64,000 nucleotides of DNA from Octopus vulgaris. Lineage: Eukaryota. This document shows positions 7,400-62,928 of this stretch, in pieces. How positions within the stretch are numbered: position 1 is the first letter of the stretch; every line of letters starts with the position of its first letter. A program made the position numbers and the translations under genes. Location of the stretch: contig OX597816.1 in assembly GCA_951406725.2 (NCBI GenBank), forward strand, positions 38,316,001-38,380,000, read 5' to 3'. The notes under the pieces were generated by a model. The model did not search any database. It was given only the letters and a program-made list of their open reading frames with translations, and was not told the origin of the DNA.

Positions 7400-7602
7400 A
7401 AAGTTAATCCAAACAAGAAAGCACAAAAAAAAAAACACAACAACGCGAGGACGTGGGACAAATATAGTATTATTGGACGCTCAGGAAAGAAGGAAAGAAG
7501 GAGGGTTTAATGTTTCGAGCGGAGCTCTTCGTCGGAAACATAGGAGAAGGAAAGATCCAGAGAAGGGAAGACAGAGGAAAAAAAATCGCCAACGGTACAC
7601 GT
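7400..7602 (-). mobile_element. Short non-coding hammerhead-like element, family X, copy 1 (probable Penelope pLTR derivative)
   Basis: Near-identical to 19192-19396 and 29177-29383. Minus strand 7505-7539 reads GTTT-CCGACGA-A-GAGC-TCC-GCTC-GAAA-CA-TT-AAAC. Confidence 0.75.
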
Positions 7603-9884: not shown

Positions 9885-10270
9885 GGGAAGCACTCCGTCG
9901 GTTACAACGACGAGGGTTCCGGTTGATCCGAATCAACGGAACAGCCTGCTCGTGAAATTAACGTGTAAGTGGCTGAGCACTCTACAGACACGTGCACCCT
10001 TAACGTAGTTCTCGGGGATATTCAACGTGACACAGAGAGTGACAAGGCCGGCCCCTTGAAATACAGGTACAGCAGAAACAGGAAGTAAGAGTGAGAGAAA
10101 GTTGTGGTGAAAGAGTACAGCAGGGATCACCACCATCCCCTGCCGGAGCCTCGTGGAGCTTTTAGGTGTTTTCGCTCAATAAACACTCACAACGCCCGGT
10201 CTGGGAATCGAAACCACGATCCTATGACCGCAAGTCCGCTGCCCTAACCACTGGGCCAATGCGCCTCCAC
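9885..10270 (-). mobile_element. SINE family C, full length
   Basis: Minus-strand head GGAGGCGC..TGGCCCAGTGGTTAGGGCAGCGG..GGTTTCGATTCC. 12-bp TSD TAACTTACCAAT at 9873-9884 and 10271-10282. Confidence 0.93.
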
Positions 10271-18508: not shown

Positions 18509-18894
18509 GTGGAAGCACTCCGTCGGTTTCGACGACGGGGGTTCCGGTTGATCCGATCAACGGAACAGCCTGCTCGTGAAATTAACGTGTAAGTGGCTGA
18601 GCACTCCACAGACACGTGTACCCTTAACGTAGTTCTCGGGGATATTCAGCGTGACACAGAGAGTGACAAGGCCGGCCCTTTGAAATACAGGTACAACAGA
18701 AACAGGAAGTAAGAGTGAGAGAAAGTTGTGGTGAAAGAGTACAGCAGGGATCACCACCATCCCCTGCCGGAGCATCGTGGAGCTTTAGGTGTTTTCGCTC
18801 AATAAACACTCACAACGCCCGGTCTGGGAATCGAAACCGCGATCCTATGACCGCGAGTCCGCTGCCCTAACCACTGGGCCATTGCGCCTCCACA
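18509..18894 (-). mobile_element. SINE family C, full length
   Basis: 11-bp TSD AAATAGAACGT at 18498-18508 and 18895-18905. Confidence 0.93.
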
Positions 18895-19191: not shown

Positions 19192-19396
19192 GCGTGACCT
19201 CGTGAGTACCACTGGCGATTTCTTTCCTCTGTCTTCCCTTCTTGGGATCTTTCCTTCTCCTATGTTTCCGACGAAAAGCTCCGCTCGAAACGTTAAACCC
19301 TCCTTCTTCCCTTCTTTCCTGAGCGTCCAATAATGCTTTATTTGTTCCACGTCCTCGCGTTGTTGTGTTTTTTTGCTTTTGTGCTTGGATTAACTA
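19192..19396 (+). mobile_element. Hammerhead-like element family X, copy 2
   Basis: 19264-19298 reads GTTT-CCGACGA-A-AAGC-TCC-GCTC-GAAA-CG-TT-AAAC. The 3' end runs into (TA)n. Confidence 0.75.
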
Positions 19397-21129: not shown

Positions 21130-21540
21130 GGCGGCGAGCTGGCAGAAACTTGGCACGCCGGACGAAATACGTAGCCGTATTTCGTCTGCCGTTACGTTCT
21201 GAGTTCAAATTCCACCGAGGACGACTTTGCCTCTCATCCTTTCGGGGTCGATTAAGTAAGTACCAGTTACGCACTGGCGTCGATATAATCGACTTAATCC
21301 GTTTATCTGTCCTTGTTTGTCCTCTGTGTTTAGCCCCTTGTGGGTAGTAAAGAAATAGGTATTTCGTCTGCCGTTACGTTCTGAGTTCAAATTCCGCCGA
21401 GGTCGACTTTGCCTTTCATCCTTTCGGGGTCGATTAAGTAAGTACCAGTTACGCACTGGCGTCGATATAATCGACTTAATCCGTTTATCTGTCCTTGTTT
21501 GTCCTCTCTGTGTTTAGCCCCTTGTGGGTAGTAAAGAAAT
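21130..21540 (+). mobile_element. Head-to-tail dimer of SINE family A
   Basis: Full copy 21130-21357 is followed directly by a 5'-truncated near-identical copy starting GGTATTTCGTCTGCC. Confidence 0.9.
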
Positions 21541-21776: not shown

Positions 21777-22006
21777 GCGGCGAGCTGGCAGAATCGTTAG
21801 CACGTCGGGCGAAATGCGTAACCGTATTTCGTCCGCCGTTACGTTCTGAGTTCAAATTCCGCCGAGGTCGACTTTGCCTCTCATCCTTCCGGGGTCGATT
21901 AAATAAGTACCAGTTACACACTGGGGTCGATATAATCGACTTAATCCGTTTTTCTGCCCTTGTTTGTCCCCTCTGTGTTTAGCCCCTTGTGGGTAGTAAA
22001 GAAATA
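21777..22006 (+). mobile_element. SINE family A, full length
   Basis: 16-bp TSD TATATTCTGCACAACA at 21761-21776 and 22007-22022. Confidence 0.92.
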
Positions 22007-28276: not shown

Positions 28277-28982
28277 CACACACACACACATTTCAAGGCA
28301 GAAAAATTTCACAGGTCGGTACGCCGTGTTTTACATTATGAGGATAAAGCAAGTGGAACAGCAGAAAATATTTTGGGTAAAACCAATATTAATTTAGTAA
28401 TAACTAAGGAGTTAGCTATCAAGTGCTTTAGTAATGACAGCGACAAGCATCGTTGGAAGGAAAGCCAGTTCAATATCCTCGATTTTTACTTTTCCACAAC
28501 GAAGCATCAATCATTTAAAAACTATCACTTTTGGTCAAAATCTTCACGTCTGTTAGTGATTTGGACATCAACACTATCCTTCATGCGCAAGGCAGCGAGC
28601 TGGTAGAATCGTTAACACACCGGGCAAAATGCTTTGCGGTATTTCGTCCATCCTTATGTTATGAGTTCAAACTCCACCGAGGTTGACTTTGCCTTTCATC
28701 ATTTCGGGGTTGATAAAATAAGTACCACTGGAGTCGATGTAATAGACTTACCTTCCCTCAAAATTGATGGCTTTGTGCCAAAATGTGAAGCTAATATTAT
28801 CCTTTATGCAAGGAAATTATTGCTGTGCTTAGATGATACTACCTGGGTTTATAAAACTTCCACACGGGTGTTTTTGACGAGCCAAACTGTGCATGATTAT
28901 TGGGGAGTATATTGTGTTGTTGTTTTCTTTTTTGGTGGGGGTTTCACATATAGACTTCGCTTATTTTAGGGAAGGAACTTAC

Positions 28983-29053: not shown

Positions 29054-29176
29054 CTGACGAGCAATTTATCTTCTTTTGGTATTTTATTCTGTACTTATCT
29101 CTCGTGTTTACGTATTTTTCACTCGTTGGTGATGTCTTGTACTTAATGTGCATTTATATATATCGTCTTTCAAAAT

Positions 29177-29378
29177 GTGACCGCGAGTGTACCGTTGGCG
29201 ATTTTCTTTCCTCTGTCTTCCCTTCTCTGGATCTTTCCTTCTCCTATGTTTCCGACGAAGAGCTCCGCTCGAAACGTTAAACCCTCCTTCTTTCCTTCTT
29301 TCCTGAGCATCCAATAATACTATATTTGTTCCACGTCCTCGCGTTGTTGTGTTTTTTTGTGCTTTCTTGTTTGGATTA

Positions 29379-29383
<5 letters not shown>
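29177..29383 (+). mobile_element. Hammerhead-like element family X, copy 3
   Basis: 29248-29282 reads GTTT-CCGACGA-A-GAGC-TCC-GCTC-GAAA-CG-TT-AAAC. The 3' end abuts a long (TA)n. Confidence 0.78.
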
Positions 29384-29460
<77 letters not shown>

Positions 29461-41496: not shown

Positions 41497-41675
41497 GGGA
41501 GAGTTTACGAAAAAAACAAAAAACGAAGACAGGTGGTGTACGAAACAAACAGATGTATCAGTATAACGCTCAGGAATAGAAAAAGTATTTTACGTTTCGA
41601 GCCTACGCTCTTCTACAGAAAGGGAGACAGAAAAAAACAAGGAGAGAAAAAAATGTGTGTAGTGGCTAGCAATCT

Positions 41676-41680
<5 letters not shown>
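41497..41680 (-). mobile_element. (TA)n-embedded hammerhead-like element related to family X
   Basis: Minus strand 41588-41621 reads TTT-CTGTAGA-A-GAGC-GTAG-GCTC-GAAA-CG-TA-AAA. Shares downstream TTCCTGAGCGT with family X. Confidence 0.7.
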
Positions 41681-47767: not shown

Positions 47768-48154
47768 GTGGAGGCGCAATGGCCCAGTGGTTAGGGCAGC
47801 GGACTCGTGGTCATAGGATCGCGGTTTCGATTCCCAGACCGGGCGTTGTGAGTGTTTATTGAGCGAAAACACCTAAAAAGCTCCACGAGGCTCCGGCAGG
47901 GGATGGTGGTGATCCCTGCTGTACTCTTTCACCACAACTTTCTCTCACTCTTACTTCCTGTTTCTGTTGTACCTGTATTTCAAGGGGCCGGCCTTGTCAC
48001 TCTCTGTGTCACGCTGAATATCCCCGAGAACTACGTTAAGGGTGCACGTGTCTGTGGAGTGCTCAGCCACTTACACGTTAATTTCACGAGCAGGCTGTTC
48101 CGTTGATTCGGATCAACCGGAACCCTCATCGTCGTAACCGACGGAGTGCTTCAG
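47768..48154 (+). mobile_element. SINE family C, full length
   Basis: 12-bp TSD ATGATGTGAAAC at 47756-47767 and 48155-48166. Confidence 0.93.
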
Positions 48155-61655: not shown

Positions 61656-62928
61656 CTAAAACAAATTCATCATTTGTATATTTGCAATAGATATATATTC
61701 TTTCATCTTTTACTTGTTTCATTCATTAGACTGCGGCCATGCTGGTGCACCGCTTTGAAGAATATTTTAGTCGATCGAATCACCCCAGCACTTTTTCTTG
61801 TTTAAGCCTGGTACTTATTCTATCATCGTGCTAACGATTCATCCCGCGCGCTGCTTATAACATGGTAAAATATTATATAACAGCTCCATTGCTCTTTTTT
61901 ATATATTTTTTTCTGACGAAAAGATTTGCTTGAAACGTTAGTATTTAAGTAGCCTCTCCACTGCAAAACGAATCCATTGCAAATCTGCGAATTATAATTT
62001 TACATAACATCGTATTTGTTAGAGAACACGTTTGCCACCACAGACACCCAATCCTACCCATTACCTAACTCAATAAAGTAAACAGCACAAAGGAAGTTTA
62101 GATAATTACGAACTTCTGTTTTTTTATTATTGTTGTTATTTTAAATTTCGCTCGTCAGCAACCTCGAGTTAACTCCCCGCAAAGGTTAGAAATAATTAAA
62201 CGATAAGAAATGTTTATTTTGCGTTTATAAAACCACACTTCTATTCGTCGTAGTATTATTATAGGAGTATTTTTATGTCAGATTTTTCTAATCATTTTTT
62301 CTTTTATTTCTGAATACCGTCGTTGGTCTGTCTGTTTATCTAACCGAATGTCTGCGTATTTGTCTGTCTGCTGGTACCTGTATTTTACTTTAAAACAATC
62401 AACTGCTTACAAGAGGAAACAAGCTGTGAAAAGCAAGCAACGGCTACAAGAATGACAAAACAGAGAAGATTTACACTAAAGGGAGATAAGCAAATGAACG
62501 GAAATTAACGATGTGCTAATTCGGATGCAGTTGTTAACAGTAAAATAAATCAATCTGCCAACAAATAAATTGGTGAGAAAAATAATAATAAAATTCCAGA
62601 GAGAGAGAGAGAGAAAGAAAGAGAGAGTGAGAAAGAGAGAGAGCATTAACAAAAATATGTAAATAAATAAATAAATATTGTATTAGATGAAGAAGATAGA
62701 AAAAGGAAGAGAAGAAAGTTATAAGAAGAGTGAAGAGAAATAGACGCGAAATAAAGTTTAAACAGAATGATTAACTGAGAAAGTGAAAGACCCACCGTCA
62801 TTGTAGCATCTTCGCATTTGTCACCCTTGTGGCAAATAAAAAAATTCATCATGATCATCATCATCATCGTCGTCGTCGTCATCGTCGTCGTCGCCGTCGC
62901 CGCCGCCATCATCATCATCATCATCATT

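Follow-up and report, generated by a model that had tools for sequence, protein, structure and literature searches.

How a retroelement family could spread with a hammerhead ribozyme whose catalytic core departs from the CUGANGA consensus is the question raised by the motif at 29248..29282 on the forward strand of the window, the 64-kb stretch of DNA analysed here. The core of this motif reads CCGACGA, with a C instead of U at position 4 (C4). An initial annotation of the same DNA had proposed that this core was fixed in the family, that the element had spread with it and that the motif was either a variant ribozyme or a structure retained as a signal.

The motif is an intact minimal type I hammerhead with the layout described for Penelope-like elements (PLEs) by Cervera and de la Pena (2014, PMC4209133). 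Stem I (29248-51/29279-82) encloses the core (29252-58, with C4 at 29253), an extra A (29259), stem II (29260-70) followed by GAA (29271-73), a palindromic ACGT (29274-77) and the predicted cut after U17, at 29278. It lies on the same strand as its pLTR, a member of a C4 subfamily (29165..29381, +) corresponding to the 5'-truncated 3' end of a putative Neptune-type PLE. This copy stops at the common 3' end of the family, shared by the window copies and located here at 29381, beside a (TA)n tract (29383..29453, +) that would represent the insertion target; TA runs lie 3' of nearly all family copies examined. Two further pLTRs of the same family, family X, are found in the window: one from another C4 subfamily at 19194..19395 (+), with its hammerhead at 19264-19298, and one at 7402..7600 (-), with its hammerhead at 7505-7539.

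Re-reading the three copies placed CCGACGA at 29252-29258 (+), 19268-19274 (+) and 7535-7529 (-), precisely where it had been annotated. The GTTT/AAAC stem I and the extra A were present in all three copies, but the 19264 copy carries a private A at 19276 in place of G10.1, leaving the base of stem II with an A.C mismatch, and a private G16.2 to A change in the 7505 copy turned the palindrome into ACAT. Among the three family X copies of the window, only 29248-29282 is otherwise intact. The extra A, which had also been pointed out, is like the palindromic ACGT an ordinary feature of PLE minimal hammerheads (PMC4209133). These hammerheads share with ours the pLTR location, the short stem I, the extra nucleotide after A9, the G10.1-C11.1 pair, the palindromic 15.1-16.1 positions, the lack of stem III and their occurrence mostly in solo truncated copies. 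A pLTR from a sister family, Y, occupies 41497..41680 (-); its hammerhead (41587-41622) has the core CTGTAGA (A6 to U) and a GUA triplet. A degenerate hammerhead-like motif at 61909..61943 (+) combines a canonical CTGACGA with broken stems, and its flanks match neither family X nor family Y. No hammerhead family was present among the 150 matches listed, out of 228, in an Rfam scan of the window.

The host element was identified from longer copies in the genome. Walking 5' from the repeat led through a CA-rich stretch into a GIY-YIG-like frame. Forty 10-kb stretches (39 endonuclease matches and one extension) were then taken as long copies; their order was DKG, YIDD, a C-x4-C-x2-C linker, a GIY-YIG-like segment, a 3' UTR of about 1.1-2.6 kb between endonuclease and repeat, and the hammerhead repeat. 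Pfam matches were weak and all below the curated cut-offs (RVT_1, E 0.022-0.043; GIY-YIG, E 0.0023), and none of the 40 long loci contained an intact ORF, the motifs spanning broken frames. The reverse transcriptase (RT) and GIY-YIG motifs nonetheless follow one another across these frames in the order of EN+ PLEs with a C-terminal endonuclease. Partial tandems in which two copies of the repeat flank the ORF (L170 and L171) and an inverted truncated copy (L151) are further PLE traits, whereas the CX2-5CxxC linker before the endonuclease and the (TA)n target, with TA runs 3' of the common end in nearly all of 35 copies examined, are those of Neptune. The Neptune PLEs described by Craig et al. 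(2021, PMC8557442) have the same RT, linker, C-terminal GIY-YIG and DKG, the same (TA)n targets, and pLTRs, partial tandems and inverted truncated copies; the hammerheads described there are canonical, unlike the off-consensus cores found here. The Neptune placement rests on anatomy, namely the target and a linker that is common with Nematis (PMC8557442). Judged from their sequence, the family X copies of the window are 5'-truncated pLTRs of a Neptune-type PLE.

Assignment to non-LTR retrozymes was rejected. The copies are scattered, truncated derivatives of a coding element, not head-to-tail non-coding units, and among 30 loci examined only one adjacent pair (L007) was seen. The 3' UTR in L151-L189 is a degenerate CA-rich repeat belonging to the element; some of the apparent microsatellite DNA of this genome is therefore element-derived.

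Counts over the 2.8-Gb, 227-contig assembly indicated that C4 is the majority state of the family and is not fixed. A 33-mer with position 4 left free had 6,985 exact matches, against 0 for the reversed control, far above chance. C4 was found in 4,749 of them (68%) and U4 (T) in 2,196 (31%), leaving 40 with A or G by subtraction. The genome-wide tally called for in the initial annotation thus made CTGACGA the minority, although roughly one exact match in three is canonical, which contradicts fixation; these canonical copies come from other subfamilies, of which one is clearly older. The CUGANGA core of minimal hammerheads is present in the U4 subfamilies and lacking in C4 copies. Two other claims held well, that C4 is a family state rather than decay and that the element spread with it. 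C4 was carried by 89 of 98 copies chosen without using the hammerhead sequence, with queries drawn from the C4-rich subfamilies of family X, and by 31 of 35 readable endonuclease-linked 3' pLTRs, with a query from a C4 copy. It was also present in 16 of 19 readable 5' pLTRs from 30 junction loci. The state of these endonuclease-linked pLTRs indicates that the coding element itself carried C4. Four public contig runs, under four organism labels that may or may not be separate species, had 22-28% T at position 4; in the one presumed to derive from RNA, T at 29253 made up 27% of the depth, compared with 22-28% in the three others.

An asymmetric element, with an active U4 ribozyme in the 5' pLTR and a weak C4 ribozyme in the 3' pLTR, had been suggested by L170 and L171 and was rejected as a general rule on the C4 majority among 5' pLTRs. 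U4 does occur in 3 of 6 5' pLTRs of one subgroup (L170, L171 and L196), above the expectation for CpG decay. The 3' pLTR of L170 and L171 carries C4, and such copies may descend from a master whose two ends carried unequal ribozymes.

Since C4 and G5 form a CpG, decay could yield T4. As the main source of the U4 copies this was rejected: TG was found 2,196 times and CA, the mirror change of G5 to A that arises by decay of the opposite strand, only 178 times. Linked diagnostic bases, which define subfamilies, also countered it. Thirty T4 and thirty C4 loci matching the same pattern differed at linked sites outside the motif and separated into subfamilies Ta, Tb and C. With pattern-forced positions and homopolymer ends left out of the columns, median non-CpG divergence was 0.060 for Ta (n=14), 0.037 for Tb (n=16) and 0.027 for C4 copies (n=30); only comparisons with Ta were significant (C vs Ta, p=0.001; C vs Tb, p=0.16). 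The U4 copies thus appear to be mostly separate subfamilies, one of them clearly older.

A tree of 95 rows was built with position 4 masked, copies whose aligned span contained TA runs dropped, and the related family Z (core CTGAAGA) as outgroup. Forty of the 45 C4 rows formed one clade (93/95) within a U4 grade; this clade also contains 2 T rows, and the other five C4 rows fall elsewhere. The alignment is short and the bootstrap unsettled (correlation 0.869). In an earlier tree the outgroup had fallen within C4, though weakly supported there, and midpoint rooting, like rooting with long-branch rows that included flanking DNA, was unreliable and was set aside. C4 is most likely a derived state that became the commonest and later split into several subfamilies, and the few T copies within the C4 clade are attributable to decay or reversion. 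Three lone C4 copies with different stem II loops (L242, L253 and G000:C1:3860147) possibly represent more independent C4 families.

Position 4 is not the only core position that changed. A relaxed motif had 33,484 genomic matches, and 39,737 were found when the whole core was left free. The first 100 of these 39,737 matches were tallied by hand, which covers the common lineages at the start of one contig. Family Y contributed 65 of them and is more abundant than family X; 60 of the 65 carried U6 (A6U), in a core CTGT-N-GA whose N7 takes all four letters, and a minority kept the canonical A6. C4 was found in 23 of the 100 matches and a canonical core in 12. The remaining positions were nearly constant (G5 100, A9 100, G8 99, C3 97, G12 95), and in the samples seen C3, G5, G8, A9 and G12-A14 showed decay-level change only, with no lineage-level change. 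In locus L163, some 700 nt separate a family Y copy from a related endonuclease that precedes it. A third change, G17, was present in 446 of the 33,484 relaxed matches and defines a subfamily that formed a 14-row clade (100/96). This subfamily (L271-L288) combines a canonical core with a GUG triplet, and its stem I contains a compensated A-U pair. Across the lineages, N7 and H17 vary as they do in working hammerheads.

All rows in Fig. S3 of PMC4209133 have CUGA or UUGA at positions 3-6, as their descriptor required, and neither U4C nor A6U is among them; the core change recorded in that figure is U3-A8, together with one G17 row, whereas U4C and A6U are majorities in two high-copy families here. 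Leaving aside Lunse et al. 2017, the literature searched contained no high-copy PLE family in which U4C or A6U predominates. Taken singly, this class of element, its motif, the additional A and U4C itself are all known already. Searches that require CUGANGA would miss most of the copies tallied above, and published counts may therefore be well too low in some genomes.

It is highly improbable that the core changed because of an overlapping signal, such as a promoter or, where the pyrimidine tract ends, a splice acceptor, rather than through the ribozyme. A long pyrimidine tract does precede the motif, A6U followed by A7 creates a TAG after the tract in some family Y copies, and the intron of the D. 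virilis Penelope ends at helix I (PMC4209133). However, an acceptor is not generated by U4C, and in other Y subfamilies position 7 is T, C or G. Codon constraint is not apparent either, the likely first Met of the ORF being a few hundred nt downstream of the motif.

In contrast to the core, the fold has been kept. Stems I and II, the nucleotide after A9, the palindromic 15.1-16.1 positions and an NUH triplet are all present. Stem I reads GTTT/AAAC in family X, ATTT/AAAT in the G17 subfamily and CTTT/AAAG in family Y, so that its outer pair covaries (G-C, A-U, C-G). In the 98 copies chosen blind to the hammerhead, non-CpG variation was about half as frequent in the motif as in its flanks (53/2440 vs 343/8476, p=5e-6). 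Single dead copies decay neutrally, and the contrast between motif and flanks would therefore reflect constraint on master lineages. The predicted minimum-energy fold of the monomer keeps stems I and II and pairs the core with CGUU, C4 remaining unpaired; the predicted dimer differs from the active hammerhead dimer. Neither predicted fold gives a reason for C4.

The common 3' end of family X lies 103 nt past the predicted cut, which implies that every motif-bearing copy came from an uncut template. The Anolis Poseidon element PAc (Frangieh et al. 2024, PMC11167929) offers a parallel: its target is AT-rich, its main template is uncut RNA, and reverse transcription begins 3' of the cut site, about 85-92 nt from it. 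PAc differs in belonging to the Poseidon clade and in starting its ORF inside the hammerhead, whereas the element studied here has a Neptune-type Zn-linker and an ORF that apparently starts downstream. In our element, the protein would nick (TA)n, reverse transcription would begin about 103 nt beyond the cut site on its 3' side, and the RT would have to copy through the uncut hammerhead. As such read-through would be needed, fast cutting would bring no advantage or even carry a cost. Masters whose cores are slower (U4C, A6U or G17) would then amplify freely, and selection would keep the fold, perhaps with a slow dimer- or protein-assisted cut. We hypothesize, with a probability of roughly 0.55, that C4 marks a ribozyme that is slower without being dead and whose fold is conserved, the slowing being tolerated because reverse transcription would start about 100 nt 3' of the cut.

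The slowing effect of the three changes is borrowed from other hammerheads. In a viroid, U4C made cutting much slower in vitro and was sufficient in vivo (Ambros and Flores 1998, via PMC3088659), the viroid remaining infectious; that motif is a full hammerhead in an RNA replicon, while the one described here is a minimal motif without evident tertiary contacts, inherited in thousands of DNA copies. For position 6, the low activity reported is that of A6C (PMC3088659), and minimal hammerheads are strongly impaired by G17 (PMC3884650). Slowing is not required for success, since the canonical U4 subfamilies also reached thousands of copies. More tentatively, PLEs may have been selected to brake their own ribozyme. 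Since reverse transcription would begin a short way downstream and have to pass through the motif, slower hammerheads would out-replicate faster ones, with U4C, A6U and G17 as brakes and the active site kept for a late, protein-triggered cut.

The 5' ends of truncated copies were examined for a cleavage footprint. From the first 100 matches listed, 35 loci could be placed: 26 ended just 3' of the cut site (over 9 positions) and 9 ended 5' of it (over 22), a density about 7-fold higher on the 3' side. This step would suit a ribozyme that is fully adequate with C4, the ACGT dimer or the element's protein restoring normal cutting so that nothing is slowed in vivo, and the infectious U4C viroid (PMC3088659) and the anole hammerhead, whose cutting requires protein (PMC11167929), point the same way. 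We nevertheless consider it unlikely. The step is not a spike, as only 3 of the 35 listed loci start exactly at +1 and ends continue through +9..+27 (23 of 40 loci, from the first 100 matches listed). Stalling of the RT at the fold, or a preference of junctions for pyrimidine tracts, would explain it equally well; one tract subtype was enriched on both sides of the cut site, a subfamily bias (20 loci read). Moreover, metazoan PLE minimal hammerheads are thought to be dimeric and are slow in vitro even when canonical (PMC4209133).

The missing spike would also be compatible with a complete loss of catalysis, the fold being kept solely as a signal that the protein of the element uses for binding or initiation. 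Such a loss would explain how each of three distinct changes that lower activity came to characterise a lineage, and in the anole PLE hammerhead-dead mutants still insert, insertion in vitro being unaffected (PMC11167929). This seems doubtful to us, since natural variants at all three changed positions keep some activity (PMC3088659, PMC3884650). Within the 100 tallied matches, G8, G12, G5 and C3 had changed at decay level only. In the 33,484 relaxed matches, N7 and H17 varied in the manner of functional hammerheads and G17 was rare. Structural roles are also held by G8 and G12, so the constancy of these two positions does not prove catalysis. Taken together, the unchanged catalytic positions favour a slowed over a dead ribozyme.

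Within a single structural frame, this genome offers a natural series of alleles (canonical, U4C, A6U and G17, each in hundreds or thousands of copies), so that cleavage rate and replicative success can be compared directly to ask what the hammerhead does for PLEs.

Other dispersed repeats were noted in the window, at 344-479, 21130-21265, 21777-21912, 28592-28727 and elsewhere. One dispersed group (2609-2861, 9887-10163, 18556-18786 and 47876-48152) has members 96-99% alike and is therefore very young.
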